Below the pieces are notes generated by a model. It saw only the letters and a list, made by a program, of their open reading frames with translations, was not told where the DNA came from and did not search any database. DNA of 33,901 bases, from NCBI GenBank assembly GCA_038886995.1, contig JAWALG010000009.1, forward strand, positions 1 to 33,901, in the 5' to 3' direction. This stretch comes from Candidatus Iainarchaeum sp. (GTDB lineage: Archaea > Iainarchaeota > Iainarchaeia > Iainarchaeales > DTGL01). How positions within the stretch are numbered: the first letter of the stretch is position 1; every line of letters starts with the position of its first letter. This document shows positions 1 through 30,579 of this stretch, piece after piece. Made by a program: the position numbers and the translations under genes.

Positions 1-564
1 GTTTGCTGGCGTTGCAATGCCTTCTTTATCTGCTTTCTGCAAAGCAATCAGCAGGCGCTTTATCTCTTGCATATTCCTGCCTGCAGACAATGGATAATAA
101 AGTATTGCCCTAACCTTTGCCTTATCATCAATTATGAACACTGCTCTTACTGCTTGCGTGCTTGAAGCATTTGGCTGCACCATGCCATACTTCTTTGCAA
201 CCTCCATCTTTATGTCTTCAATCACTGGAAACTTAACCTCAACATTCTTCATGCCTTTATACTCAATCTTCTCCTTTATAGTTCTGAGCCAAGCAATATG
301 TGCATAGATGCTGTCAATTGAAAGGCCTATGAGCTCAGTGTTAAGCTTCTTAAATTCCTCATGCATAGAAGCAAAAGCCATAAACTCTGTCGTGCATACC
401 GGCGTGAAATCAGCAGGATGGCTGAAAAGTATAACCCACTTGCCTTTGTAGTCCTCTGGGAAATTGATTTCGCCAAGGGTTGTCTTTGCCTTGAATGTTG
501 GCGCATCGTCGCCAATCAAAGGCATCTTATTGCAATTGCATTCCTTGCATTCACATTCTGCCAT
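1..564 (-). CDS. Peroxiredoxin, Prx6 subfamily (archaeal TSA/AhpC-type); 3' end runs off the window; missing from the ORF track
   Basis: Manual translation from the ATG at 564: MAECECKECNCNKMPLIGDDAPTFKAKTTLGEINFPEDYKGKWVILFSHPADFTPVCTTEF...VRAVFIIDDKAKVRAILYYPLSAGRNMQEIKRLLIALQ...ATPAN. PVCTTE is the Prx6 peroxidatic motif. RBS GAGGTGA lies just upstream. Confidence 0.96.
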   Translation of the reverse strand, partial: MAECECKECNCNKMPLIGDDAPTFKAKTTLGEINFPEDYKGKWVILFSHPADFTPVCTTEFMAFASMHEEFKKLNTELIGLSIDSIYAHIAWLRTIKEKIEYKGMKNVEVKFPVIEDIKMEVAKKYGMVQPNASSTQAVRAVFIIDDKAKVRAILYYPLSAGRNMQEIKRLLIALQKADKEGIATPAN

Positions 565-568
565 AAAA

Positions 569-721
569 TCACCTCTCTTCATTTTTTAGCGCCTTTCCAG
601 CGCTATACTCTTTCCTTTCAACAAACTCTTGCCTTTTGCCATCATTCCAGTTTTGAACAGGTCTATAGTAACCACAGACCCTTGAGTAAACCTCTATTTT
701 TCTTCCGCACTTATCAGTCAT
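569..721 (-). CDS. 50-aa stand-alone protein matching the C-terminal glycyl-radical segment of class III (anaerobic) ribonucleotide reductase NrdD; below the ORF-track size cutoff
   Basis: Manual translation: MTDKCGRKIEVYSRVCGYYRPVQNWNDGKRQEFVERKEYSAGKALKNEER*. EVYSRVxGYxRPVxxWNxGKxxEFxxR is the NrdD C-terminal signature. The ATG overlaps the rubrerythrin stop (ATGA, 721-718), and the ORF fills the gap up to the peroxiredoxin RBS. Confidence 0.9.
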   Translation of the reverse strand: MTDKCGRKIEVYSRVCGYYRPVQNWNDGKRQEFVERKEYSAGKALKNEER

Positions 722-1245
722 TTTGCACCACGCTCCTCTGACAAATGCAGATGGTCAGTTTCAACTTCCACAAGTGCATCGAATATTTGCTTTATTCTTG
801 GATGTGTAGCTTCTGAAGCTGCTCTGCGGTAAAATTCAATAGCCCTTGTTTCCCTAGCATGCGACTCCTGCAAGTTTTTGGAATAGTCAGCAGTGCAAAC
901 ATCATTGCCTTTAGGTATTTCCTTGAGTTTGAGTATTTTCTTCCAGATATTTGCGTGCTCTGCTTCAACCTTGCCTAAGGCCTTGAAAAGCTTCTTTGCT
1001 TCCGGGTCATTTGTTTTTTCAGCAGCACAAAAGTAGAATGTTGAATTGCTAACTTCAACTTGCAGAGCATGCTCGGAATTTTCCCTGTCTTTTGCATTAA
1101 GCTCTACTTCAAAGTTTGGCTTTGCATCCTTGAACTCTTTTATGTGCCTGCCGCGAGCGCCGCAAAAAGGGCAGCATGTTGGCGGCGCATATCCAATGTA
1201 AGGATCTCCGCAAATTTCACAAACCCAAAGCTTTGCGTTTGCCAA
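718..1245 (-). CDS. Rubrerythrin-family protein in reverse arrangement (N-terminal rubredoxin-like domain plus ferritin-like diiron domain)
   Basis: WVCEICG...CPFCG rubredoxin knuckles, followed by the E...ExxH motif twice (EVSN/EAEH and ETRA/ETDH). TTG start preceded by GAGGTGA. Confidence 0.9.
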   Translation of the reverse strand: MANAKLWVCEICGDPYIGYAPPTCCPFCGARGRHIKEFKDAKPNFEVELNAKDRENSEHALQVEVSNSTFYFCAAEKTNDPEAKKLFKALGKVEAEHANIWKKILKLKEIPKGNDVCTADYSKNLQESHARETRAIEFYRRAASEATHPRIKQIFDALVEVETDHLHLSEERGAK

Positions 1246-1251
1246 AAAAAA

Positions 1252-1647
1252 TCACCTCTTTTCAAGACATTTTTTGCAAAGGCCTTCTACACATATTATT
1301 ATTGATTCTGCCTTGAAACCTTGTGGATTCAAGCCAGAAGTGAGTTTATTGCAGAATTCTTTATTGCTGCAGTCAAGGACAACGCCACAATTCCTGCATA
1401 CAAAATGAATGTGGTTGCTCCTGTCACAGTCAAACCTATACTCATTGTTTACTTTAAAACGCAAAATCTCGCCACTGTCTGCAAGCTTGTGCAAGTTCCT
1501 GTAAACGGTTGCGAGCGTTATTGATGGAATTTCTTTTCGTACTTGCTCAAAAACCATCTCAGCAGTGGGGTGGCTCTTAACACTACAAAGATGTTCCTTT
1601 ATTTTTTGCATCTGAATTGTGTGTCTTGTGCGAACCAATAAAAACAC
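1252..1647 (-). CDS. Fur-family transcriptional repressor, PerR-like; true start may be the TTG at 1638
   Basis: HPTAE, SITLATVYRNLHKL helix, RFD, HIHFVCRNCG and GLCKKC motifs. It heads an operon of peroxide-defence genes. AAGGTG sits at RBS distance from the TTG at 1638. Confidence 0.92.
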   Translation of the reverse strand: MFLLVRTRHTIQMQKIKEHLCSVKSHPTAEMVFEQVRKEIPSITLATVYRNLHKLADSGEILRFKVNNEYRFDCDRSNHIHFVCRNCGVVLDCSNKEFCNKLTSGLNPQGFKAESIIICVEGLCKKCLEKR

Positions 1648-1653
1648 CTTTAT

Positions 1654-1692
1654 TGCAAATGATTATTAATTTATAACCATTCTTATTTAAAA
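1654..1692 (-). promoter_or_regulatory. TATA box (TTTTAAATAAG, 1692-1682) with possible Per/Fur-box-like operators between it and the perR-like start
   Basis: TTATAACCATTCTTA (1671-1685) matches 11/14 and TGCAAATGATTATTA (1654-1668) matches 10/14 of the Bacillus Per box TTATAATnATTATAA. The AT-rich background weakens this. Confidence 0.4.
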
Positions 1693-1777
1693 CATATCGC
1701 AAGCTTCTAAAATTCGGGGCACTCAAAAGGTTTAAATATACCTTAAAACATAATTATCAAAGGCGAAAGGTGTTTTT

Positions 1778-2233
1778 ATGCTGAAAAGAAGGATTTACTA
1801 CATAAGCGAAAAAAACCTTCATTTAGTGCGTCTCATTGGCTCATTCATATTTTTTGGCGCGCTGATAATGATCCTTTATTCAGCAGCCACAATGTTTAAC
1901 GACTGGGACGCAATAAAAGCATATGAAAAATGCACCTTTTCGAAACTAGAGTGCAAGGATGCGCTTTACAAGACAACTGGAGTATATCCAGCCGGCAACT
2001 ATTATGATCTTAACACAAAGCAAAAGTTCATGATTATGGTAAAGCCAGTAGCAATGCTTTTCTTCTGGGCAATTGTTTTCTTCTTAGGTCTTTTGCTTTA
2101 TGGCTGCAGAAAAATAAGCATCACATTCCACGAAGCAGAGAAGGCAGAACACATATTGCATGCTAAAGTAAGGCAGAAAGAAGAAACTAAGGTAGAAAAA
2201 GAGGAAGAAAAGAAAAAGAAGGAAAAAGAATAA
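1778..2233 (+). CDS. Hypothetical membrane protein with two TM helices and a Glu/Lys-rich tail
   Basis: AAGGTG RBS, upstream TTTAAATA box, two hydrophobic segments flanking a small loop with two Cys. Confidence 0.75.
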   Translation: MLKRRIYYISEKNLHLVRLIGSFIFFGALIMILYSAATMFNDWDAIKAYEKCTFSKLECKDALYKTTGVYPAGNYYDLNTKQKFMIMVKPVAMLFFWAIVFFLGLLLYGCRKISITFHEAEKAEHILHAKVRQKEETKVEKEEEKKKKEKE

Positions 2234-14040: not shown

Positions 14041-14997
14041 ATGCCCATAAAGCGTCTTGACCTGAAGCTTGGCTTTAGATGCAACAACAATTGCCTAAGC
14101 TGTCCACAGGCCCATAGAAAACATCTTGGTGATTTAAGCACAGCTGAGGTAAAAAAACTTCTTGAGAAAGGCCGTGATCACGGCGCTAATGAAGTTGTGC
14201 TCACAGGCGGAGAGCCAACTGTAAGGCCCGACATCCTTGAAATAATCTCTTATGCAAAAAAACTTGGCTACGAGTTTATACAATTGCAGACAAATGCAAG
14301 GATGCTTTACTACAAAGAATTTTGCAAGAAGCTTATAAAAGCAGGAATAACTGAATTTGGGCCAGCGATCCATGGACCTAACGCAGAGGTTCATGATTAT
14401 TTGGTGCAGTCACCTGGCGCTTTTGGCCAAGCAATTAAAGGCATAAGAAACCTAAAAGAACTTGGCCAATATGTTATAATGAACTCAGTAATAAACAAAA
14501 TAAACTATAAACTTCTCCCTGAAACAGCAAAGCTTTTTGTTGACCTAAGCGTAGATCAATACCAATTTGCTTTTATACATTGTGTCGGGAATGCAAAAAA
14601 GAATATAGATCTATTATTACCAAAAAAAAGCGAGGTTATGCCCTACTTGCATAAAGCTTTGGACATCGGCATAAATGCAGGCATAAAAGTTATGGTTGAA
14701 GCATACCCATACTGTTTCATGCGTGGCTATGAAAAGTACTGCTCTGAGCTCTATATGCCACCAGCAGAGATAATGGATGCTGAAGGCATAGTAGAGGACT
14801 TTGACAAGCTTAGGAAAGAAACTGGCAAACTTAAAGGCCCTAAATGCAAAGGATGCCGCTATGACCTTATCTGTGAAGGGCCTTGGAAAGAATATCCTGA
14901 AAAGTTTGGCTGGGCCGAGTTTGTACCTATTGCTGGAAGAAAAGTTAAAAGCCCTGAAGAAATACTGGGGCAAGAATTGGCAAAAGAACTGAGTTAA
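14041..14997 (+). CDS. Radical SAM protein, HxsC-like paralogue 1
   Basis: CNNNCLSC, LTGGEPT, TNARML and HD motifs, plus a C-terminal CKGC.....CEG....Y...FG..EF.P cluster; adjacent to hxsB. Confidence 0.88.
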   Translation: MPIKRLDLKLGFRCNNNCLSCPQAHRKHLGDLSTAEVKKLLEKGRDHGANEVVLTGGEPTVRPDILEIISYAKKLGYEFIQLQTNARMLYYKEFCKKLIKAGITEFGPAIHGPNAEVHDYLVQSPGAFGQAIKGIRNLKELGQYVIMNSVINKINYKLLPETAKLFVDLSVDQYQFAFIHCVGNAKKNIDLLLPKKSEVMPYLHKALDIGINAGIKVMVEAYPYCFMRGYEKYCSELYMPPAEIMDAEGIVEDFDKLRKETGKLKGPKCKGCRYDLICEGPWKEYPEKFGWAEFVPIAGRKVKSPEEILGQELAKELS

Positions 14998-15030: not shown

Positions 15031-16482
15031 ATGGCTAAGATTATGATGGAAAATATGTTAGATTTTGACTCCGGTTATGTTCTTAATTTTTATAATGTTA
15101 AAAAGCTGAGGGAAAACGCATATTTGGTAACTACAGAGCACGGCGCATGGGCCTTGCTGAATAAAAAGCAATACTACCTGCTAAGGTTGCAGCAATTAAG
15201 CAAAGACAAAAAGCTCTTCAATGAGCTTGAAAAAAAAGGCATAATTTTAACTGAAAAAAATGTCCAAAATGCAGTAAAGGCCTATGCTGTAAGAAACTCT
15301 TTCCTGTTTCAAGGACCTTCGCTTCACATAATTGTGCCTACTCTGCGATGCAATCAACGTTGCATATACTGCCATTCGCGAGCAGAGCCCGAAAGTGGCA
15401 AAGGCTTTGACATGGACAGAGACACAGCAAAAGCAGTAGTGGACTTCATATTTAAGAGCCCTTCAAAAATACTGATCATAGAATTTCAAGGTGGCGATTG
15501 CCTTCTAAACTTTGAAATAACTGAGTTTATAATAGATTATGCGAAAGATCTTGCAAAGAAAAAGAAAAAGAGTGTTGGCTTTTCAATTGTAACAAATCTT
15601 ACCAAAATGGATGAGGACATTATAAGAAGTTTAAAGGAAAGGCACATAATGGGTTTGGCAACATCTCTTGACGGACCTAAGCACGTGCATAACAAAAACA
15701 GGCGTTACCTTGGTGGAAAAGGCACTTATGAAGATGTTGTATACTGGATAAAAAGGATTAAAGAGGAATGGAAATACGACTTCAACCTAAATGCGCTTTG
15801 CACAATAACAAGACATTCTTTGCCTTATGGCAAAGAAATTGTTGATGAATATATGTGTTTTGGTTTCAATGGTGTCTGGCTTAGGTTTATGAACAACATA
15901 GGTTTTGCTGCTGATTCTTGGACAAAGATAGGTTACACACCAGAAGAATACCTGATGTTTTATGAAAAGACCCTTGACTACATAGTCAGCAAAAACACAA
16001 GAGAGCAGCATTTCACAGAGTTGATGGCCTTGATATTCCTCAAGAAAATACTTACAGAAAGGGATCCTTACTTTACTGACATTCAGAGCCCTTGTGGTGC
16101 TGGAATAGGACAATTGCTTTACAAATACAATGGCGACATACATACCTGCGATGAAGGAAAGCTTTTTGAGGAGTTTAAGCTTGGCAATGTTTTCACTTCA
16201 AAGTATGAAGATATATTCAACAATGATACACTAACAACAATGATTGATATTTCCTCAAAAAAGAATTACCTTTGCGATGCTTGCGTTTGGAGCCCATATT
16301 GCGGCATATGCCCCTTGCATACTTATGCAACACAAGGCACGATTGTTTCAAAGCTTGCTCTTGATGAAAGATGCAAAATAATGCAAGGTCTTATAAGCAG
16401 AATTTTTGAAAGGCATTTATTCTCAAGGAAACACAGCGTTGTTTTCAAAAATTGGGTTGAAAAAGATGTTGTGTTTAAGTAG
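15031..16482 (+). CDS. hxsB: His-Xaa-Ser system radical SAM/SPASM maturase HxsB
   Basis: N-terminal RRE-like YLVTTEHG...ELEKKG, GPSLHIIVPTLRCNQRCIYCH, IEFQGG, TSLDGP..HNKNR, D..SPCGAGIGQL.Y.YNGD..TCDEG and C..C...PYCG.CP SPASM motifs; HxS precursor nearby. Confidence 0.93.
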   Translation: MAKIMMENMLDFDSGYVLNFYNVKKLRENAYLVTTEHGAWALLNKKQYYLLRLQQLSKDKKLFNELEKKGIILTEKNVQNAVKAYAVRNSFLFQGPSLHIIVPTLRCNQRCIYCHSRAEPESGKGFDMDRDTAKAVVDFIFKSPSKILIIEFQGGDCLLNFEITEFIIDYAKDLAKKKKKSVGFSIVTNLTKMDEDIIRSLKERHIMGLATSLDGPKHVHNKNRRYLGGKGTYEDVVYWIKRIKEEWKYDFNLNALCTITRHSLPYGKEIVDEYMCFGFNGVWLRFMNNIGFAADSWTKIGYTPEEYLMFYEKTLDYIVSKNTREQHFTELMALIFLKKILTERDPYFTDIQSPCGAGIGQLLYKYNGDIHTCDEGKLFEEFKLGNVFTSKYEDIFNNDTLTTMIDISSKKNYLCDACVWSPYCGICPLHTYATQGTIVSKLALDERCKIMQGLISRIFERHLFSRKHSVVFKNWVEKDVVFK

Positions 16483-16490
16483 GGGTTTGC

Positions 16491-17561
16491 TTGTTTGAAT
16501 TTTTCTTTGCTTTTGCAATTTTTGTTTCCTTGGCAATATCTCTCAAAGATATTAAGTATGGAAAGATACCAAATAAGTACATTGTTTTGCTTCTCGCTTC
16601 TGGCATTTTTTATCAGGCCATAAGTGCAGCAGATTACTTAAAGGTAGTTTTCACATTTTTCTATGCTCTTGCAGTGGCTTTTTTGCTCTGGCTTTTTGGC
16701 ATATGGCCGGCTGGCGATGCAAAGCTTTTCTCTGTTCTATTCCTGCTTTTACCGCAAACTCTTTATGCATCACCAAATCTGACATTTGACTTTCTGGTTA
16801 ATTGCTTCGTGCCAATATTCTTCTTTATGTTTTTTATAATAATAGCTAAAAGCCGTTTTTCAGTATTGAAAGATGCTATTAAGTTTACATTTCAGCCGTA
16901 TAGGGTAACAATCCTTGCTCTGGCTTTGCTCGGATTTGTTTGGTTCCTCTCTAAGCTGTTAAGCTTGATCGCTTTTGGGCAAGCAATTTTTAGTGACTAC
17001 TTTGTAATGTTGCTTCTACTTTTTTTAACTTATGAGGCTTTTAGGCGAATTCTAAGTGCAAAGTTGGAGCTTCTTTTTTTTGCGCTTGCTGTGCTTAGGG
17101 TTGTGCTTGACTACAGGAATGTTTACTCGATATCTTTTATGCTCAACTTCGCAACAATGATTGGAGTATTTCTTTTCTTCAGATTCTTCATAATATACTT
17201 GGCCTTTAAGCTTTACACTAAGAGCGTTCCTATAAAGAAACTTAAGCCGGGAATGTGCCCAGCAGAGATGATTTTGCAGAAAGGTAATGGCTTTGAGAGA
17301 GTTAGCTTCCTTAACTCAGGCCTTTTGGCCTTTGGTAATGAAAAGAGGGGGCAGATACTGCATAACATTGATTGCCTCTCGGAAGATGATATAAAGAAAA
17401 TAAAAAAGCTCCGCAGAGAAAAGAAGATTCCATTTGATGACATGCTGATAAACTTTACTCAGCCATTTGCAATATTCATTGTTTTGGGGTATGCTCTTAC
17501 TGTGCTTTTTGGGACAAGCTTTTTGGTTTTTATATCCAAACAATTACTGCTTTTTAAGTGA
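16491..17561 (+). CDS. A24-family prepilin/prearchaellin peptidase, long multi-TM (EppA-like) form
   Basis: SLKDIKYGKIPN and GIWPAGDAKLF catalytic Asp motifs, about 10 TM segments, LKPGM..AE and PFA.FI..G C-terminal motifs; TTG start 8 bp after the hxsB stop. Confidence 0.9.
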   Translation: MFEFFFAFAIFVSLAISLKDIKYGKIPNKYIVLLLASGIFYQAISAADYLKVVFTFFYALAVAFLLWLFGIWPAGDAKLFSVLFLLLPQTLYASPNLTFDFLVNCFVPIFFFMFFIIIAKSRFSVLKDAIKFTFQPYRVTILALALLGFVWFLSKLLSLIAFGQAIFSDYFVMLLLLFLTYEAFRRILSAKLELLFFALAVLRVVLDYRNVYSISFMLNFATMIGVFLFFRFFIIYLAFKLYTKSVPIKKLKPGMCPAEMILQKGNGFERVSFLNSGLLAFGNEKRGQILHNIDCLSEDDIKKIKKLRREKKIPFDDMLINFTQPFAIFIVLGYALTVLFGTSFLVFISKQLLLFK

Positions 17562-18647: not shown

Positions 18648-19562
18648 ATGCCTGAAATAAAAACTGCTTTGCTTCTTGGCTACAAATGCAACAATAATTG
18701 CAGGTTTTGCTATGCAGCAGATAAACGTGAATTGCCCTTGATGAGTACTGAAGAAGCAAAGAGGCAATTAAGGGCTGCAGTAGAGCGTGGATCAACCTTT
18801 GTTGATTTTCTCGGCGGCGAGCCAACAATAAGAAAAGACCTTGTTGAGCTAATTTCTTATGCAAAAGAGCTCGGCTTTAAAACTATAAGCATCACAACAA
18901 ATGGAAGGATGCTTTCAAATGCTGAATATGCAAAGAAGCTTTATGATGCGGGATTAAATTCTGCGGTATTTTCAGTGCATGGCCACAACGCAGAGCTGCA
19001 TGACTACCTTGTTAATGTTAAAGGCGCTTTTGACCAGCTTGTGAAAGGCATGCAGAACTTCAGGGCAATATCAGAAGAGGTCTATATATGCACAAATACA
19101 GTTATCGTAAAACCAAACGTTGCATTTTTGCCAGAGATTGCTGAAATAAATGCAAAGCTTGGGGCTAACGGCATGGAGTTTATTTTTCCGCATCCAAGAG
19201 GCAACGCTTACAAAAATTTTGAAGATATGGTTCCGAGGCTTGAACATTTAATAGGTGTTGTGCAAAAAACAATTGGTGTATGCACTTCAAAGGGCATAAG
19301 GCATTGTTATTTCAGATACGTGCCTTTTTGTTATATGTACGGCGCTATAAATTTCATAAGTGAATACGCAGCAAAAACTTCACTAAAAGAAACTCACATA
19401 GGCCCAGAATTTGAGGACCTCGAAGTTGAAAAAAACCGCACCAAGCAAGGCCGTGTCAAGGGACCTCAGTGCTTTGGATGTAAATACAATGAAATCTGCG
19501 AAGGGATCTTTAAAGAATATGCTGAAAAGCGCGGCTTTGAGGAATTGGTGCCTGTGCCATAA
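18648..19562 (+). CDS. Radical SAM protein, HxsC-like paralogue 2
   Basis: CNNNCRFC, GGEPT, TNGRML and HG..AE.HD motifs; C-terminal KGPQCFGC.....CEG....Y....G.EEL.P. Clearly paralogous to 14041..14997. Confidence 0.88.
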   Translation: MPEIKTALLLGYKCNNNCRFCYAADKRELPLMSTEEAKRQLRAAVERGSTFVDFLGGEPTIRKDLVELISYAKELGFKTISITTNGRMLSNAEYAKKLYDAGLNSAVFSVHGHNAELHDYLVNVKGAFDQLVKGMQNFRAISEEVYICTNTVIVKPNVAFLPEIAEINAKLGANGMEFIFPHPRGNAYKNFEDMVPRLEHLIGVVQKTIGVCTSKGIRHCYFRYVPFCYMYGAINFISEYAAKTSLKETHIGPEFEDLEVEKNRTKQGRVKGPQCFGCKYNEICEGIFKEYAEKRGFEELVPVP

Positions 19563-21054: not shown

Positions 21055-22902
21055 TTATAGCGCCAGGTAGAGTTCATAAAGCTCATTTCTATTAAAGACA
21101 TCATCTATTTTAGGTCCAGACCTACCGTCGCAGAACTCAACTTTCGAGTTTTGCTTTACCTTAAAGAGTTCTAAGCAATTTGAGCAATCACTTGGTATAT
21201 TGAAATATTCATAAAAGTCTTTCTCTTTTTTGTCACTTGAATCACTTATTTTTATTTTTTTAGTCACTAGGAATGGAATTCCGTTGGTTTTGAGGGAATA
21301 GAGAAAGTCCTTAAAAAAAACAGTTTCTCTTGTGTTTAGCTGCTGCTTGCATGGTGGAGAAAGCAAAAAAAGCACAAGGCCTTTAATCCGTTCATTGAGT
21401 TTCAACATTCTCGAAAGCAATATTTCCAAGTTATCACTCTTGGGATTTAATCTAACAAGGACAGCACTACCTACAGCATTACCTGTCCTTGGAACTGAGT
21501 TAAAGTTATTGTAAACGGGCATCTCGATATTCTGCCCTATAAGGTATGTTCTATTTTTTGCGATTTTTAGATATGGCTTTAGCTTTATGAGTTGGCTTTC
21601 AGCCAAGTATCTGAAGTAAGCTAAGGTCTCTTCTTTTCTCTCCTTGCAATGTGTTTTGTCTGGTAGGTAGATTGTCCCATTCTTTCGAATATTGCTCAGC
21701 AAACACCCGCCCCAACAAAGCTTAAAGTCGCATTCATAGCATTTCTTTACTTTTCGGTACCATGTGCGCACCTCATTTAGCCTATCTTTGTCTAAAATTA
21801 TTTTTTTATTTTTGAAGTCATACCTCCCAAAAACCAACTTATTTGCGTTATGATTAACGACATCATATTCATCACCTAGCATAGCACATGGTGTAACAAG
21901 ACCTTCAGGAGTTATCACAAAAGAAGAAGAAACTGCACATCCACAAATTTGTGTATTACCAATCGATTTTTGGGCTGGTAGCAAACATTTAAGGTTTATT
22001 ATATCGCACAGCTCTTTTATTTTTAGCTGCGATTCTATTAGCCATTCATATTGCTTCATCGATCTTATTTTTTCTGCGGAAAGCGCTTCTTTCCCAATGT
22101 CACCAACTATTGTAATGAAAAGTCTTTTTACGCCTAGCGAGAGAAAATATTTTACTACATCTGATTCTTTCCCAAGGTGTTTTTCTGTCAGAGTTATTTT
22201 GACTGTGAAATTCATGTTTTTAGATATCAATTTCCTTAGGTTGTTTTCAACAATTTGGCTACTTTTTAGACCATTTTTTAAAGGCCTTAGTGAATCTTGT
22301 ATCTCGGGTGGGCCATCGCAAGATATCTGAAATGAGTCATAAAATGGGTTTTCCTTTAATATTTTAAGGAATTTCTCAGGCAATAGTGTGCCATTTGTTG
22401 AAAGCTTGAATTGTTTCACATTTATTGACTTCTTAGTTATATCAATGGTCTTTGAAAAAAGTGGAAAGTTTAGCAGGGCTTCACCAGAAGTTACGAAATC
22501 AACTATAACCCCCTCCTTTTGGTTTCTAGCAATGAATTCTGTTGCTGCTTTTATTATTTCCAAAGAAGAGTCCTTACCACTTTTTAATCCGCCATATCCA
22601 ACACAGTATCTGCAGTTCATATTGCATTTAGTGGTCGATGCTGGAAGAAAACATGAAAATGATTCAACTTTTGCAAATGGTTTCATTAAGTTGACTGCTA
22701 AGTATTTTTGACCATGAGAACTAAACAAATCTTTATCCATAACGTAGAAATTCGAAGAATTGCTACAAAATGCAACATACAAGTTTTTTCTTCTGAAAAG
22801 AAAGTGAAGGAAAGGGCTTCTTCTTGAAAGCTCTTTCTTAATATCAGAGGTCTCTTTGCTAAAGAACTTTTCATTATTTTTTTCAAATATCTTAAGAAGC
22901 AT
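21055..22902 (-). CDS. Radical SAM/SPASM peptide-maturase-like protein with an extra C-terminal domain of about 170 aa
   Basis: CNMNCRYC, STNG, ISCDG...QD..R, then CGC...ITPEG.V.PC and CYEC....CWGGC...C SPASM cysteines; starts 8 bp after the hxsA stop. Confidence 0.9.
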   Translation of the reverse strand: MLLKIFEKNNEKFFSKETSDIKKELSRRSPFLHFLFRRKNLYVAFCSNSSNFYVMDKDLFSSHGQKYLAVNLMKPFAKVESFSCFLPASTTKCNMNCRYCVGYGGLKSGKDSSLEIIKAATEFIARNQKEGVIVDFVTSGEALLNFPLFSKTIDITKKSINVKQFKLSTNGTLLPEKFLKILKENPFYDSFQISCDGPPEIQDSLRPLKNGLKSSQIVENNLRKLISKNMNFTVKITLTEKHLGKESDVVKYFLSLGVKRLFITIVGDIGKEALSAEKIRSMKQYEWLIESQLKIKELCDIINLKCLLPAQKSIGNTQICGCAVSSSFVITPEGLVTPCAMLGDEYDVVNHNANKLVFGRYDFKNKKIILDKDRLNEVRTWYRKVKKCYECDFKLCWGGCLLSNIRKNGTIYLPDKTHCKERKEETLAYFRYLAESQLIKLKPYLKIAKNRTYLIGQNIEMPVYNNFNSVPRTGNAVGSAVLVRLNPKSDNLEILLSRMLKLNERIKGLVLFLLSPPCKQQLNTRETVFFKDFLYSLKTNGIPFLVTKKIKISDSSDKKEKDFYEYFNIPSDCSNCLELFKVKQNSKVEFCDGRSGPKIDDVFNRNELYELYLAL

Positions 22903-23337: not shown

Positions 23338-24180
23338 TCAAATAATTGGGTTAAACTCTTTTCCCCCAGCAATAGCAAGGTAACTTTTCCATATCTTTGG
23401 GCATTTTTCTCTAACTTTACACATTGCACATTTTTTTAGAAGTGTTAGCTCTGCCTCCTGCTTTGTCACGCCTTCCGCAAGAGGCCAATATTTTTTATTT
23501 ATTATACATAGGGGAAAATGAAACAACCTTACCTCAAATCCTGCATCTAACAGAATGGTTGCGGCTTTTTGTACAAAGGGTGCTGCCTTGCAATATCTAA
23601 CGAAAATCTTGTGCCTGTTTATAAAAGCATTTCCTGTGTATTTTAAGTTGATAAAAACAACTCTCTCGAGGCCTTTGAAATTTTTTGTTATGAATTCTGC
23701 AGTTTTGCTTAAACTCTTATAATTCGCTTTTTCCACGAGAATTCTTAACTCAACTTTGAAGCCACTTTGAAGAAGATTATTTATGCCTTGAACTGTTTCG
23801 TTCCAGCTACCTTTTGCCAAAGTAATGTTGTCATGCACTTTGGGGTCATGGCTATAGAGTGCTATACCGAAGCGTATCGGCTCAAGCTTACTCTTATCCA
23901 ATTCTGCTAAAAAACTTTTTTCAGAAAACTTCCGCCCATTGCTAACAACAAAAATGAACTTCTTTGGGTGCTTCTTCCTTGCATAGGTCAGAATGTCGGG
24001 GAAATCGTCTCTAAGCGTTGGTTCTCCGCCAGTTACGCTGAAAATTTCTTCTTGTGGGATTTTGTTTATGATTTCAAACAGTGCATTTTTGCTTTGTTCG
24101 CCGAAACAAACAGTCATGCGTGTATCCATTATGCAGCTTATGCAATTATTGTTACACTTGAAGGTTAGTGGCCACTCCAT
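23338..24180 (-). CDS. hxsC: His-Xaa-Ser system radical SAM maturase HxsC-like (paralogue 3, between hxsD and hxsA)
   Basis: CNNNCISC, VTGGEPTL, SNGR.F, GIALYSHD..VHD, GSW.ETV.GI.NL, VELRI, PLC and C..C.....C motifs. Confidence 0.85.
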   Translation of the reverse strand: MEWPLTFKCNNNCISCIMDTRMTVCFGEQSKNALFEIINKIPQEEIFSVTGGEPTLRDDFPDILTYARKKHPKKFIFVVSNGRKFSEKSFLAELDKSKLEPIRFGIALYSHDPKVHDNITLAKGSWNETVQGINNLLQSGFKVELRILVEKANYKSLSKTAEFITKNFKGLERVVFINLKYTGNAFINRHKIFVRYCKAAPFVQKAATILLDAGFEVRLFHFPLCIINKKYWPLAEGVTKQEAELTLLKKCAMCKVREKCPKIWKSYLAIAGGKEFNPII

Positions 24181-25119: not shown

Positions 25120-28100
25120 ATGAAATTGTCTGAATATTTTTTCTTGAAGTTTATTCTGGTTGTTCTGCTAATTAACTTTTTTGGTTTTGTAAATGCACAA
25201 ACGTGCTACGGCGGGCTTTCAGGAAGTAGTTTGCGGGATTGCATTGGCAGTGACGAGAGTCCATGCCATTACTGTGATGTTAGTGACATGGACTATGAAA
25301 TAAGAGCACCTGACAATATTACAACAACTGGTTGGCGCGATATGACTTATTCTACGCAAGTTGGAACATGTAGCGTTAGTTGCACTCAAGAAACATGGAC
25401 AGCAAGCTATCTTTGGTGCCCTCAAGAAGGAACTTATTCAATGAGGACAAGGGCTTATGCACAAGGAGGTAGTGGTTATGCTTGGGAAACTAGTGACTGG
25501 AACACAAACGCTTATACTGTAAATTACGATTATGAACAAATATGGTGTACTTGCAAAGGTGGCACATGGCTTTCAGGAGCAACATACTGTGGCAGCCTTG
25601 GATGCCAAGGCGGAAAGTGCTGTGGCGATGATGGTGCAAATGACAATTTTTGTGTTGCTGGTGGTGGGAGCTGCGTAGCTGGAACATATTACGCAAACCA
25701 TTGTTCAGATGGTGTCCAAAACTGTGATGAACAAGGTGTTGATTGTGGTGGTGCTGATTGTACTCCTTGTGTAAGTGTTGTTATAAATAACCCAAACGGC
25801 AACCAATACATAAAGGGCACATACAACATTGATTTCAATGTTTATGACCCAAATAACGGAGAACTGCATGCAAAAATTGCATATTCTGCATTGCCAGGTC
25901 TTTTTTCTAACACAATTGTTTCAGATCTCAACCTAAATAATGATCCAAACATTGGCGCCTTAACCTGTGATAAAACTAACTGGAGCACTTCAACAAGGTG
26001 CATATATTCTTGGGACACTACAACAGCAAACGATGGCAACTATTACATAGATATGAATGTGTGGAGCATTTCAGGTGGCTCCTCGATAGATTCTAGCAAT
26101 GCCTCATTTGCAATAGACAACACAGCACCTACTACCAGCGCTAGTGCAAAGAAGAGTGATGACACCAATTATACATTTGGAGAATGGAGTAAACTAAATG
26201 TTACTGTAACACTTGAATGCTCGGACGAAACAGCTGGTTGTGATAAAACATATTACTGCTTTGGCTCCGGTTGCAATCCCACAACAATTTATTCTTCCCC
26301 AATAACAATATCCTCAGAAGGCACAACATACTTGAGGTTCTACTCTGAGGATAATGCAGGCAATAGTGAAAGTGTTCAAGAAAAGATTGTAAAAATAGAT
26401 AAGTCTGGGCCGACAACAACAGACAATGCTCCCACAACTTGGCAAATTAGTGATTTCAATATAACCCTTAGCTGTGATGATGGTTCCGGCATTGGCTGTT
26501 CTGAAACCTATTACAGGATAAACAATGGTGCTTGGCAGCCCTATTCTGAAGGCATAAGCATAACACAAGATGGAAACAATCGCATTGATTATTACAGCAA
26601 CGATCTGCTAAACAACATTGAAGACACAAAAACTTGTTATGCTCCACTAGATAAAACTCCGCCAGTAATAGATGTTAACTCTCCTTTGGCTAATGAAGTT
26701 ATAGAGTCAACTATATACGTAAGGTTTAAAGTAAACAAAGGTTTGGGATCACCTTTAGACTTTAATTCGATAACTGTGCTTTTGGATGGTACTGAAAGCG
26801 ATGATTTTATTAGGACAGAACACTGCATAGAATCTAGTGGCGATTATATCTGCTCTTATTACGAATATGTTAACACTGCAAAGGATTACAACCTTTCAAT
26901 AATAGTAAGTGATGAAGCGGGTTGGACAGCACAACAAGACATTAATTTCTTGTATTTAGGTCACACTTCTTTCAATATAGAAGGTTACATTGTAGAACCT
27001 AGCACACCAATGGCTGGAACTAATTATTCAATGATGGATGTTGGTTTAAGCTTATTCGGTGGCTCTCTCTGTGCCGCGGCGAAATGCATTGAAACGGGCT
27101 TCCCAGCAATATTCAGGAATATTCCACCAGTGCTTGTATATGCTGGTTATGAAGAGGGTTACTTTAACGGAGACCTTAACATAAGGTTCTATGCTGCTGA
27201 CTATGAGATGGGTGAATTGCACACTAAGATAGCATATTCTACATCCAAAGGCTCATTCCAAAACAGCATTGTTAATGACCTTAACCTAAACAATTACCAA
27301 AATATTGATAGGTTAAGTTGCGCAAGTACTGATTGGCGTTACGCTAAATTATGCACTTATGAGTGGGATACAACACAAGCGAGCGATGGCAACTATTATC
27401 TTGACCTAAATCTATGGGATGAACATGGTGCAAGTAGCAGCTATTCAACAACTAACACTCTCTGTATAGACAATATTGCGCCAGATATAAATGTGATTAA
27501 TCCACAGCCAAACGAAATAATTGAAGATCCCTGGGTGATGTTCAAGATATCTGAAAATGGTTGTGCTCCTTTGGTTTTGAGTTCAATATCAGTTCTTTTG
27601 GATGGTGAAGCCGCTAACTTTGACTATGTTAGGGATTGCAATAAAAGTGGATCTGAGTATACCTGTGGCTTTAACATAATTGGGCTCGTTGAAAGAGATT
27701 ATAATTTGAGCATAATAGTAAGTGATTTAGCGACAAATAAGAGGCAAGTTGATGTCAACTTCAGATTTATTCCAAAAATTTCTGTAAGTGCTATCCGGCC
27801 CAGTGGCACTCTTGAGACGGGAGATATAACAATATCCTTTAATGTTTACAATACCTCGCTGAGTGAGCTCCATGCAAAGATATATTATAGCTCAATATAT
27901 GCTGGAAAACTTGGCTTTGAAAATGCGATAGAAACAGACCTAAATCTCAACAACTATGCACAGATAGAAAACCTAAATTGCACCTCAAATGCTTGGTGGC
28001 CACCGGTGCAGTGCACATACTACTGGGATGCTAGCAGTGTTGCTGATGGCAACTATTACATAGATATAAATATCTGGACAAATGAGGGTTTAACAGCATC

Positions 28101-28827
28101 GGGCTCATCTTTAAAGCAATTCCTCCTTGACAATACACCACCTGTAGCGAGTATCACTGGTGTTTCAGAAACAGTGACATTTGAAGATACTATCTATTTA
28201 AACTGCACTGACTCTGTCTCAGGATGTAAACAAACCAGGTGGTATTATTTCAGTGACAATGGTGTTTGCTCAAGCACGAAGGATGATTACACACAAACCA
28301 CTAATTCTAACAGCATCACAATTACTGAAGACAACAACAGCTACATTTGCTTATGGGTCGAGAACAATGTTAACCTAAGCTCAAAGGCAACTTCTTCTAG
28401 GTTAAATGTGCTTTCAAGCAGTTGGGGAATTGTAAAAGGCCCAAGCGAAACAATAAATGAGGCAGCATTGGATTTAAACAATGCCTGCTCTTTCTATGTG
28501 AGCTCTGATATAAATCTTGCATGTGAGTACCAAAGCTTTGTGAAGATAAGAAGCTACGATGTGGACATAGGCAGAGTTTATCCTTTGTCTCCATCTATAA
28601 TAGAATCGTCTGAGAGGCCACTTGAGGTTTTGCTTGAGTCATCAATAACAAGCTTCTATGATAAAAGATACTACATAATATTTGAGGGTGAAACCACAAG
28701 GATAACAAGCCAAGGTAGTGAGAAAGATTATCCTAATGTAATTGTGAGGCGCAGAACATTGCCTTTGCTAAAAGCCAATGGTAACCTTGAGCTTGGAACC
28801 CTGATCATAAAGGCGGGTAAAAGGTAA
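25120..28827 (+). CDS. Large secreted Cys-rich surface protein built from repeated Ig-like modules
   Basis: Signal peptide; Cys/Gly-rich N-terminus (CSDGVQNCDEQGVDCGG); three ELH.KI.YS...DLNLN...C...W...C.Y.WD...DGNYY modules; two P...SI.VLLDG...DYNLSIIVSD modules; D(N/K)xxP linkers. Confidence 0.85.
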   Translation: MKLSEYFFLKFILVVLLINFFGFVNAQTCYGGLSGSSLRDCIGSDESPCHYCDVSDMDYEIRAPDNITTTGWRDMTYSTQVGTCSVSCTQETWTASYLWCPQEGTYSMRTRAYAQGGSGYAWETSDWNTNAYTVNYDYEQIWCTCKGGTWLSGATYCGSLGCQGGKCCGDDGANDNFCVAGGGSCVAGTYYANHCSDGVQNCDEQGVDCGGADCTPCVSVVINNPNGNQYIKGTYNIDFNVYDPNNGELHAKIAYSALPGLFSNTIVSDLNLNNDPNIGALTCDKTNWSTSTRCIYSWDTTTANDGNYYIDMNVWSISGGSSIDSSNASFAIDNTAPTTSASAKKSDDTNYTFGEWSKLNVTVTLECSDETAGCDKTYYCFGSGCNPTTIYSSPITISSEGTTYLRFYSEDNAGNSESVQEKIVKIDKSGPTTTDNAPTTWQISDFNITLSCDDGSGIGCSETYYRINNGAWQPYSEGISITQDGNNRIDYYSNDLLNNIEDTKTCYAPLDKTPPVIDVNSPLANEVIESTIYVRFKVNKGLGSPLDFNSITVLLDGTESDDFIRTEHCIESSGDYICSYYEYVNTAKDYNLSIIVSDEAGWTAQQDINFLYLGHTSFNIEGYIVEPSTPMAGTNYSMMDVGLSLFGGSLCAAAKCIETGFPAIFRNIPPVLVYAGYEEGYFNGDLNIRFYAADYEMGELHTKIAYSTSKGSFQNSIVNDLNLNNYQNIDRLSCASTDWRYAKLCTYEWDTTQASDGNYYLDLNLWDEHGASSSYSTTNTLCIDNIAPDINVINPQPNEIIEDPWVMFKISENGCAPLVLSSISVLLDGEAANFDYVRDCNKSGSEYTCGFNIIGLVERDYNLSIIVSDLATNKRQVDVNFRFIPKISVSAIRPSGTLETGDITISFNVYNTSLSELHAKIYYSSIYAGKLGFENAIETDLNLNNYAQIENLNCTSNAWWPPVQCTYYWDASSVADGNYYIDINIWTNEGLTASGSSLKQFLLDNTPPVASITGVSETVTFEDTIYLNCTDSVSGCKQTRWYYFSDNGVCSSTKDDYTQTTNSNSITITEDNNSYICLWVENNVNLSSKATSSRLNVLSSSWGIVKGPSETINEAALDLNNACSFYVSSDINLACEYQSFVKIRSYDVDIGRVYPLSPSIIESSERPLEVLLESSITSFYDKRYYIIFEGETTRITSQGSEKDYPNVIVRRRTLPLLKANGNLELGTLIIKAGKR

Positions 28828-28844: not shown

Positions 28845-29705
28845 TTAAGCTGGTGCGAAGAGGGAAATTGCGGTTATATAAATAAACAATGATGTTGTGA
28901 GGAGTATTATTGAATGCTTTATTCCTGCTATAAAGCTATCCTCAGCTATTTTGCCTATCATTGGTCCAGCAAAGAGAGCCTGTATAATTATAAGCCTAGT
29001 GAAGTGCTCTTGATAATCTACATCTTCGGCTGTTGGCTGAGAGGCAATTGGCTGTCCAGTTATATCTATGCCACCTTCAAGCACTTGGCCAACGTTTATG
29101 CCAACTTGCTCCTTAAGAATCGGGATAAAGAAAACATATATGAGTATTATTATGATAACAAAAACGTAAAACATGAGATAGGAGTTTATAAGCGCGGATG
29201 TAGTCCTAGATTTCCTCTGGCTTTTAAGCTTTTCAACTTTGTCAACATAGTCAATTGCAACAGAGAATACCTTCATAAAGTTGCCGCCTGCACGTAGCGT
29301 TTGGTTTATAGCTACGGTTGTTTTCTTTATAACTGGGCTGTTTAGGCGTCCGAAGGTTATAAGCATTGCTTTCTCCATTGGCACCCCTAAACGAACTTTT
29401 GCTGCAAGCCTCTTCACATATATGGTCAGCGGCCCATAATCATTCTTGGCAGTTATAACCAAGGCATCACTTATGTTGACCCCGCCTTGGAGGAGATCCT
29501 TTAGGTCATCCAAAAAAACCCTGAAGTTTTCTTCAATTTCCTTAACCACTTTAGTCCTAATATAAAAGGCATACATCGGCGGTATGAAAAGCAAGATAAA
29601 AGGCACTAATGAAAAGCTCGTGTTATTTAGCACAAAGTAAGATGCCAAAAAGACAATAACGCCGATAAAAATCCATCTCCCATAATATTTCCATTCAACT
29701 GCCAT
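28845..29705 (-). CDS. Type II/IV secretion system F-domain platform protein (TadC/ArlJ/PilC-like)
   Basis: IEENF..FL.DL....GG.....AL......DYGPL; ...GG; IIQALFAG..IGKI.E.S...G.KHS; multiple TM segments. Confidence 0.9.
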   Translation of the reverse strand: MAVEWKYYGRWIFIGVIVFLASYFVLNNTSFSLVPFILLFIPPMYAFYIRTKVVKEIEENFRVFLDDLKDLLQGGVNISDALVITAKNDYGPLTIYVKRLAAKVRLGVPMEKAMLITFGRLNSPVIKKTTVAINQTLRAGGNFMKVFSVAIDYVDKVEKLKSQRKSRTTSALINSYLMFYVFVIIIILIYVFFIPILKEQVGINVGQVLEGGIDITGQPIASQPTAEDVDYQEHFTRLIIIQALFAGPMIGKIAEDSFIAGIKHSIILLTTSLFIYITAISLFAPA

Positions 29706-29709
29706 TAAA

Positions 29710-30579
29710 TCACTCTTCAGACATCATATACATTACAAACATGAATATTAGATTTGCTATCGGCATTCCGAAAACAACACCATAAAAAAGAATCTCGTTA
29801 ACTGTAAGTCCGAACATCTTTCCTGCTGAGAAAAAATTAAGCATCATTATTGTGAAAAATATAAAAAGTGGTGCTGCAATCATTAGGATAGTGTATATTT
29901 CACCCATTGTTTCTGCCCTATCTGAAGCCCTTTCTAGCATGAGACGGTACCTGAAGTATGCGTCATCAGCCCTTTTTGCCATAAACTCACGCAAATCACC
30001 GCCGCTTTTAATTGTGGTATTAAGCTCTTTGAGGAATGTTTTAAAAGAAGGCGATGGTGTTATTTCAGACATTTTATCAATAGCTTTTGTAAAAGACAAT
30101 CCGAGCTGGTTCATAAAGCGCTCAATCTTTCTGCATTCGTGCTTTAGCCTTGGGTATTCTTCACTGTTTGCTAGCACTTGAAACATATACTGTGGTGGTG
30201 CGCCTGCTTGTGTGACAGTAGACATTGTAAGTATTGCTAGTGGCAGGCTTGCTTCAATGTTCTTCTTTTTTCTCCCAAGGTCAAAATCAGGCCAAACTAA
30301 AGCAAAAATCCCAACAGATGCTGTAATAACAAGCGGGATAAAAAGTATCAGAATGTTTTTGACAAATAAAAAAAAGATAATAAGGCATAAAAGAAATGAA
30401 AGGAAAAAAGAAAGGAATATGGCAGTCAGGGAGTAAGCAACATACATCGCTTCAGGATATGGATAATCAATCATTCCAAGCTTTTGCCTTAGCTTTGCGT
30501 TTTCAAAGCCATTTAAGAGCTTATAAAAACTCTTACTTGCGATTTTGTGCAGTGTTTTCGATAGCATATTTCTCATCAT
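29710..30579 (-). CDS. Second type II/IV secretion system F-domain platform protein
   Basis: I...LP.A...M......G.PP, G.....A.......TPS..F...L......I.SGGDL, E...EIY......APL motifs; directly downstream of the ATPase. Confidence 0.9.
   Translation of the reverse strand: MMRNMLSKTLHKIASKSFYKLLNGFENAKLRQKLGMIDYPYPEAMYVAYSLTAIFLSFFLSFLLCLIIFFLFVKNILILFIPLVITASVGIFALVWPDFDLGRKKKNIEASLPLAILTMSTVTQAGAPPQYMFQVLANSEEYPRLKHECRKIERFMNQLGLSFTKAIDKMSEITPSPSFKTFLKELNTTIKSGGDLREFMAKRADDAYFRYRLMLERASDRAETMGEIYTILMIAAPLFIFFTIMMLNFFSAGKMFGLTVNEILFYGVVFGMPIANLIFMFVMYMMSEE

Follow-up and report, generated by a model that had tools for sequence, protein, structure and literature searches.

The 33,901-nucleotide stretch analysed here (the window; Candidatus Iainarchaeum sp., assembly GCA_038886995.1, contig JAWALG010000009.1) carries a 50-codon open reading frame (ORF) encoding the glycyl-radical tail of NrdD, the anaerobic (class III) ribonucleotide reductase (RNR), as a stand-alone peptide in an operon with genes for a Fur-family regulator, a rubrerythrin-like protein and a peroxiredoxin. 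We somewhat favour the reading that this peptide is a spare radical module for O2-damaged class III RNR, supplied from a stress operon. According to the available text of two papers, O2 cleaves glycyl-radical enzymes (GREs) at the radical glycine (PMC12288474, PMC13450708), and the accessible part of a third describes an RVxGY-type loop as the carrier of the glycyl radical in NrdD (PMC11226230).

The four genes are closely packed on the minus strand of window positions 1-1700, in the order regulator, rubrerythrin-like gene, peptide ORF and peroxiredoxin gene (Table 1). The peptide ATG (721-719) shares an ATGA overlap with the TGA of the rubrerythrin-like gene, the peptide stop codon (571-569) precedes the peroxiredoxin ATG (564) by 4 nt, and the last codons of the peptide ORF serve as the GAGGTGA ribosome-binding site for the peroxiredoxin gene. 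The intact, ATGA-coupled 50-codon ORF between rubrerythrin and peroxiredoxin that a first-pass annotation had described from the DNA letters was confirmed, and its strand, not given earlier, is minus. The TTG start of the regulator was placed by alignment with relatives, and the top NCBIfam matches of the regulator are PerR models, at 78 and 68 bits, below the respective cut-offs of 180 and 200. The rubrerythrin-like protein is 74-83% identical in relatives.

A Pfam scan (E up to 1) returned only PF13597 for the peptide, with no match to PF01228, the pyruvate formate-lyase (PFL)-type Gly_radical domain. Residues 4-39 match positions 526-562 of the 562-position profile (E 9.2e-12, 44.8 bits, cut-off 26.2), so that just 37 of 562 positions are covered, and the last ~36 positions of TIGR02487 are matched as well (47 bits vs a cut-off of 326). 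The ten-stranded barrel with the active-site Cys loop, a feature of full-length NrdD, is not in the peptide. These end-of-profile matches agree with the earlier identification of the peptide as an NrdD glycyl-radical tail. The radical loop, RVCGY, occupies residues 14-18 and is invariant in all 15 small homologues that were aligned.

Those homologues, 15 proteins of 46-74 aa with the peptide included, came from a word-indexed search and have 17 invariant columns. When 1.84 billion cluster representatives were searched exhaustively with a profile, 5008 matches had an E value no higher than 1e-3 and 2595 one no higher than 1e-10, and 145 of the best 150 matches are 49-106 aa long. Judged by these sequences, free-standing NrdD tails are a large family, which has no name as far as the literature searched shows (subscription-only papers and supplements were outside its scope). 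Closer to the window, the perR-rbr-peptide order with the ATGA overlap was found in five of six related operons, in three genera of one family. In G002, G008, G011 and G012, the small ORF overlaps the end of the preceding rubrerythrin gene (rbr) by 4 nt, with the same regulator gene upstream, and each of these genomes has a larger NrdD elsewhere in addition to the small stand-alone radical-domain copy. The gene 3' of the peptide varies among relatives.

Selection on the peptide was measured among five orphan copies, i.e., copies in such operons. The proportion of nonsynonymous differences (pN) was 0.04-0.21 and that of synonymous differences (pS) was 0.73-1.08; these are given instead of dN/dS, the ratio of the corresponding rates, because synonymous sites are saturated. 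The adjacent rbr behaves alike. Low pN with saturated pS means that the frame of the peptide is under strong purifying selection, and the purifying selection on homologues whose lack was to count against the first-pass proposal is therefore present (pN at most 0.21 among the five copies). The radical Gly and its flanks are intact in all six orphan tails, which have the 17 invariant columns in common with nrdD-adjacent tails. In view of these data it is extremely improbable that the ORF arose by chance or is the remains of a gene fragment with no function. The ORF is indeed very short, it is absent from some congeners, and one copy in G112 has an in-frame TAA; however, the Pfam E value is 9e-12, the start and stop coupling is conserved, and the ORF is intact in five genomes of three genera with synonymous change saturated and pN at or below 0.21.

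Separately encoded tails proved to be the usual form of NrdD in the order. A PF13597 match was obtained in 108 of its 196 genomes, and 107 have a tail (the phylum-wide search comprised 19 genomes more than the order's 196). Among the 117 tail matches, 14 are fused, in frames of at least 592 aa, and 103 lie in frames of 37-202 aa. In about 93 of the 107 genomes the tail has a gene of its own, placed between the nrdD core and nrdG. Nearly all short-frame tails are found at most about 300 nt 3' of a core whose profile match runs from position 1 to ~526-533, and a few lie at contig ends with nrdG after them; additional tails in G098, G141 and G159 were tried as orphans and rejected, being cognate tails of this contig-end kind, with nrdG next. 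Twelve split junctions were inspected, and at every one the tail starts at an ATG of its own with a GGAGGT/GAGGTG-type site 4-10 nt ahead. At these junctions the core ends soon after an invariant C-P-x-H ... C-P segment, the relative frame of core and tail can be any, and any of the three stop codons stands between them. The gene order at split loci is core-tail-nrdG, as in L035 (G013), L036 (G008), L046 (G107) and L047 (G093). The split NrdDs, with separate start and Shine-Dalgarno (SD) sites, variable frames and varied stops, are genuine two-gene enzymes and not products of sequencing errors or recoding. No description of a split class III RNR was found in the literature searched.

The split form also clarifies the single cysteine of the peptide. 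C637, H640 and C650 (G002 numbering) are invariant in all 19 NrdD proteins or cores aligned; the fourth metal ligand is C662 in the fused G002 protein and lies on the tail in split forms, which places the split point between the third and fourth ligands. The fourth-ligand Cys is kept in all six orphan tails, and the peptide has this one ligand (Cys5) of the four-ligand C-H-C-C site, with the other three on the core. The first-pass annotation had taken the peptide Cys for a Cys-Gly remnant of the NrdD Zn ribbon; this did not hold, since it is the conserved fourth ligand of the C-H-C-C site. The metal site is presumably completed across the core and tail chains, which would provide a docking mechanism. 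The peptide fits the small-subunit form of split NrdD (~45-100 aa, a start near the fourth ligand, its own ATG and SD). It is not at the place of a split subunit, after a tail-less core and before nrdG, but between rbr and the peroxiredoxin gene (prx). Because separately encoded tails are normal in the order, the peptide is not a unique invention but one more copy of a small subunit that already occurs naturally.

The relatives show which enzyme such a copy could serve. Full-length NrdD of ~720 aa, covering profile positions 1-562 and with its own tail, is present in all six other genomes of the genus, and G002 has this fused NrdD as well as the orphan. NrdG was found near nrdD in five of five relatives checked, the G001 copy scoring as an NrdG2 equivalog (213 bits, cut-off 131). 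Searches for class I and II RNRs gave nothing in five of five relatives and nothing over the cut-off in the window's assembly, so class III is the only RNR found in the relatives and the window's genome. A 43-aa match to the C-terminus of a class I/II RNR (C12, E 0.036) was taken as a chance match; it lies in another frame of a 304-aa ORF.

The peptide was modelled, with its alignment, together with Zn and residues 1-673 of the G002 NrdD, i.e., NrdD as O2 cleavage at Gly674 would leave it. The complex passed with a score of 0.81, and the best of three controls reached 0.54; the score mark used is reached by 58 of 80 solved complexes and by 2 of 110 mismatched pairs. Model runs agree in at least 90% of contacts, with a partner pLDDT (predicted local distance difference test) of at least 76. 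The modelled contacts include those between core residues 633-654, the metal-site segment, and peptide residues 2-20, and those between barrel residues and the Gly loop. Because NrdD structures with their own tail have already been solved, the pass of this model (the first-pass annotation had proposed one with NrdG as well) indicates likeness to the native tail, not binding or displacement of a stub by the peptide.

A connection with oxidative stress is suggested by the promoter. In the five promoters aligned, upstream of the regulator gene, a TTTAAA(T/C)A element is followed ~14 nt on by a Fur-type 7-1-7-like box, both at the same place in all five. The boxes fit 11-13 of the 14 specified positions of what we take to be the Fur consensus. 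Neighbouring genes in relatives include those for methionine sulfoxide reductase B and CDGSH iron-sulfur proteins.

The linkage was then followed outside the family, starting from the rubrerythrin alignment instead of the tail and with one genome per species. The rubrerythrin search gave 59 loci with 40-83% identity, spread over many phyla of archaea and bacteria, and the tail profile, run over ±2.5 kb flanks, gave seven matches in six of them. Four of these six are Iainarchaeum loci already seen. The fifth, in Nanoarchaeia, has the order perR, tail (43 aa, with a 4-nt overlap with perR), rubrerythrin, this rbr and two ferritin-like genes, and 14 kb away in the same genome there is a split nrdD with a tail of its own next to it. 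The sixth, in Woesearchaeota (G216, L078:833-1349, L111), begins with two tail ORFs (81 and 95 aa), both with a Cys-rich N-terminus of their own; next come rubrerythrin, this rbr, one ferritin-like and one glutaredoxin-like gene and a thioredoxin-reductase fusion, which from its motifs is read as desulfoferrodoxin-like. This genome has two tandem full-length NrdD paralogues. Orphan 1 is closer to the second NrdD (53.1 bits, 42% over 67 residues) than to the first (43.9 bits, 31%), whereas orphan 2 is closer to the first (48.9 bits, 57% over 35 residues) than to the second (41.2 bits, 43%). Such reciprocal pairing is the pattern that would be expected of paralogue-specific replacement modules, although the differences are modest and the sequences short. 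The recurrence of the PerR/rubrerythrin context in Nanoarchaeia and Woesearchaeota agrees with the oxidative-stress linkage of homologues on which the first-pass proposal depended; outside the Iainarchaeum family only two of 55 loci have a tail, which is few, and it is the operon arrangement that carries the argument, not the statistic.

The placement in stress operons would fit equally well if the peptide were a decoy or regulator that competes under stress for NrdG or for the tail site of the core, so that NrdD stays radical-free and uncleaved until anoxia returns, which would be protection instead of repair. The conserved activase-recognition loop and docking residues and the predicted fit to the core are likewise compatible with a decoy. 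We consider it unlikely, since O2 hits only the tail and replacing it would be the simpler cure, since both the paralogue-matched pairs and the retention of the metal ligand suggest productive assembly, and since no feature of the orphans marks inactivity, the Gly and its flanks being intact in six of six.

From the homology, conservation, selection, operon structure, co-occurrence of nrdD and nrdG in relatives and recurrent linkage described above, we infer how induction, binding, activation and rescue of O2-cleaved NrdD could follow one another in the spare-module reading. The peptide would share a transcript with rubrerythrin and peroxiredoxin and be coupled to them in translation, with a Fur/PerR-type repressor in control, and more of it would therefore be made when the cell meets oxidants. 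Fresh peptide would dock in the NrdD barrel in place of the damaged tail, with Cys5 completing the C-H-C site of the core; the NrdG activase would turn the peptide glycine into a radical; and deoxynucleotide synthesis would restart with no need to remake the ~700-residue core. In a split enzyme, O2 damage would be limited to the ~50-aa subunit, leaving the 660-700-aa core untouched, and a second gene for this subunit, expressed with peroxide-removing enzymes, could refill the pool of intact tails during detoxification while NrdG re-installs the radical. In most relatives the tail is already separate, and the stress-operon copy would be an inducible replacement cartridge. In the window's genus NrdD is fused, and the peptide would act as GrcA/YfiD does on cleaved PFL, binding despite the stub. 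Exchange of tails is plausible, given the mobility of the NrdD radical domain seen in cryo-electron microscopy work, as reported in the available part of PMC11226230. A wider version of the proposal seems to us evenly balanced between true and false: in small-genome anaerobic archaea with class III RNR only, the tail would be a disposable ~50-aa cartridge that plugs in through a shared metal site, and extra cartridges would have been recruited at least three times independently into PerR/rubrerythrin operons and matched one-to-one to NrdD paralogues.

Several observations weigh against the spare-module reading. The first concerns the partner enzyme, because the whole assembly (866 kb in 38 contigs, 88.6% complete) gave no PF13597 match beyond the peptide and no NrdG over the cut-off of either activase model. 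The window thus holds no further nrdD or nrdG, as had been stated before, and the peptide is the sole match in the 866 kb; a genome with neither gene had been named in advance as evidence against the proposal, and this is what the assembly as it stands shows, whereas the relatives with the peptide have both genes, nrdD with its own tail. The nearest thing to a glycyl-radical activase in the assembly, and its best radical-SAM (S-adenosylmethionine) candidate, is an AmmeMemoRadiSam enzyme (G000:C5:29954-30988, L002:1276-2310; 312 bits, cut-off 220), which was rejected as NrdG. The five radical-SAM genes of the window are HxsC-like and not NrdG either.

The end of synteny offers an explanation for the missing genes. 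Contig C37 of the window's genome runs collinear with G002 between C37:3683 and base 2 and stops 50 codons short of the end of the fibrillarin-like gene that directly precedes nrdD in G002; of the next ~10 kb of G002, with nrdD, an aspS-like gene and nrdG, nothing was found in the window's assembly. A hot-spring metagenome that is a possible source of the assembly has a 4192-nt contig covering the C37-like part of the G002 region (depth 8.9), and contigs of 1140 and 768 nt covering nrdD (L051:4108-5989) at ~81-82% identity (depths 7.3 and 5.8). These short contigs reach across the core-tail junction to the end of the gene. Because congeners have nrdD and nrdG, the synteny stops at a contig end and short nrdD contigs with matching divergence and depth occur in the likely source, both genes, nrdD with its own tail, most likely exist and were left out of the assembly by a gap; contigs as short as 1140 and 768 nt would normally escape binning. 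The short contigs could, on the other hand, belong to a co-occurring strain, and the partner is deduced from relatives and unbinned contigs, which counts against the proposal.

If the NrdD of this genome had no tail of its own, the peptide would be the only copy, an essential split-gene subunit displaced by chance into a stress operon. Split NrdD is the norm in the order and the assembly has no second tail. However, all six congeners have a fused NrdD with its own tail, G002 carries fused NrdD plus the orphan, and the 768-nt contig in the probable source run spans the core-tail junction at ~81% identity to G002, all of which makes this explanation very unlikely. On the question, raised in the first-pass annotation, of whether nrdD has its own RxxGY tail or is simply a split gene, the same fusion in six of six congeners and the junction-spanning contig point to the former as the likely answer.

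The remaining adverse points concern the distribution and regulation of the peptide. In the perR-rbr-prx operon of the congener G004, rbr and prx are only 47 nt apart and the peptide is absent, and in four congeners this rbr was not found with the query used; the peptide is therefore dispensable, an accessory gene. The number of its origins is uncertain, because the maximum-likelihood tree of 26 tails (50 columns) lacks resolution: the orphans do not form one clade, starred branches force at least two changes, and the branch that places the G008 orphan beside the cognate tails of its genus is not starred. The Fur box of the window has three mismatches, and with seven such sites against 3.7 expected it is not above chance alone; no site with two or fewer mismatches was found in the window, and the Fur-box evidence is one of positional conservation only. 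The regulator is a putative peroxide sensor. After cleavage of a fused NrdD at Gly, the original fourth Cys is still present on the stub, which would need to be displaced. Finally, the sixth orphan, in G112 (L042:867-1007, L041), belongs to another Iainarchaeal family, whose cognate tails it resembles, and is not with PerR and rbr. It lies between an ArsR-family regulator and genes for an FTR1 iron permease and a DUF1858/NnrS-like membrane protein, a context with a metal or nitrosative-stress flavour, not PerR. A near-duplicate contig has the same ORF with an in-frame TAA.

This metal/NO-type context of the sixth orphan, together with the tight coupling to rbr and prx, would also suit a peptide that acts with another partner, e.g., as a redox or radical sensor or sink alongside rubrerythrin and peroxiredoxin, unrelated to RNR. 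We regard such a role as quite improbable, because the conservation pattern is that of NrdD tails, with 17 invariant columns in common with the nrdD-adjacent ones, and the orphans resemble the NrdD tail of their own lineage. Furthermore, no PFL-type enzyme, other GRE or PF01228 domain was found in the assembly.

The closest known systems are two autonomous glycyl radical cofactors for the rescue of PFL after O2 cleavage, GrcA/YfiD of E. coli and Y06I (vs.6) of phage T4. Like them, the peptide is a small stand-alone radical-bearing C-terminal domain encoded apart from its enzyme, and the mechanism given for GrcA/YfiD in the available text of PMC13450708 and PMC8683613, activation by the activase and replacement of the cleaved domain, is the one proposed for the peptide too. 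Unlike GrcA/YfiD, the peptide matches PF13597 and not PF01228 (IPR011140 in the accessible text of PMC8683613), and it has 50 aa as compared with the 14.3 kDa given there for GrcA. It also differs in having a metal-site ligand, a Fur/PerR-rubrerythrin-peroxiredoxin operon and an archaeal host, and in being known from sequence alone. The NrdD C-terminal domain in the phage T4, T. maritima and P. copri structures has the same motif as the peptide and the same order of metal site, buried Gly loop and surface tail; in P. copri NrdD the radical domain comprises residues 676-739 with Gly711 and becomes dynamic with dATP, according to the part of PMC11226230 available. Unlike this domain, the peptide is a separate chain that starts at the fourth metal ligand and has no barrel. 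The separately encoded NrdD tails (~93 genomes of the order) are homologous to the peptide, of the same length and with the same Cys and Gly-loop motifs, but stand beside nrdD/nrdG, whereas the peptide is in a stress operon and the main NrdD of its genus is fused. NrdJa/NrdJb, the split class II RNR of Pseudomonas aeruginosa, sets a precedent in that its C-terminal part, with a Zn finger, is a chain of its own, as described in the available text of PMC9669993; unlike the peptide, it belongs to another class with another cofactor and has neither a glycyl radical nor a spare copy.

The available text of a 2026 review gives formate lyases as the only GRE class with identified spare parts, whether other GREs have any being yet to be determined (PMC13450708), and that of a 2021 paper speculates whether other GREs have them (PMC8683613). 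No NrdD or RNR spare part was found in the literature searched, in line with the remark in the first-pass annotation that no characterised one was known. The peptide is thus a strong candidate for the first GRE spare part other than that of PFL. New here are the order-wide split NrdD with a shared metal site, the stress-operon wiring and the paralogue-matched pairs. All GREs are destroyed alike by O2, and spare-part repair is known only for PFL; if the proposal is true, formate lyases would no longer be the only GREs with a spare-part system, and no earlier such system would have been under direct oxidative-stress control. It concerns an enzyme that makes DNA precursors in strict anaerobes, and the natural two-piece versions should ease reconstitution. 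It would explain survival of transient oxygen with a ~0.9 Mb genome and no back-up RNR, and would account for hundreds of unnamed small NrdD-tail proteins in metagenomes.

Table 1. Features of the peptide operon and its promoter in the window.
Feature	Position	Strand	Remarks
Stand-alone NrdD glycyl-radical module, 50 codons	569..721	minus	Cys5 (fourth metal ligand), RVCGY radical loop, C-terminal tail
Rubrerythrin-like gene	718..1245	minus	PF02915 E 6e-11, PF21349; N-terminal rubredoxin-type CxxC..CxxC and ferritin-like domain
Fur-family regulator gene	1252..1638	minus	PF01475 E 3.9e-21; heads the operon; likely TTG start at 1638
Peroxiredoxin gene, cut by contig end	1..564	minus	PF00578 E 1e-34; NF009668 290.9 bits, cut-off 211
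TATA-box-like element TTTAAATA	1684..1691	minus	Upstream of regulator gene; aligned in 5/5 promoters; putative TATA role
Fur-type 7-1-7-like box	1654..1668	minus	Between TATA box and start codon; position kept in 5/5 promoters

Divergent from the operon, window positions 1778-2233 (plus strand) encode a predicted 151-aa membrane protein with a Lys/Glu-rich tail and no family match, and its gene is also beside the operon in G002 (L031:4160-4600). The 'reverse' rubrerythrin, with a rubredoxin-like N-terminus, is 60-72% identical in DPANN archaea, Hadarchaeota, Altiarchaeota, Nitrospirota, Syntrophaceae and others (loci L052-L110), a distribution that suggests wide spread by horizontal transfer. 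Within the order, many nrdD frames are 1000-1677 aa long, with the profile match in two or three blocks that break at about 156, 263 and 53 (G049:C9, G177:C105, G038:C52, G100:C44, G161:C6); these broken matches look like intein insertions.

The five radical-SAM genes of the window lie between 14041 and 24180 (14041-14997, 15031-16482 with a SPASM domain, 18648-19562, 21055-22902 and 23338-24180). Their best matches, below cut-off, are HxsC-type maturases of the His-Xaa-Ser system, and neighbouring ORFs have no Pfam match; the cluster may be a peptide-modification locus. A prepilin-peptidase-like gene (A24) at 16491-17561 and genes for a T2SSE-type ATPase and two T2SSF membrane proteins at 28845-32806 suggest a type IV pilus or archaellum-like system. 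Between them, positions 25120-28827 encode a 1235-aa protein with immunoglobulin-like domains.

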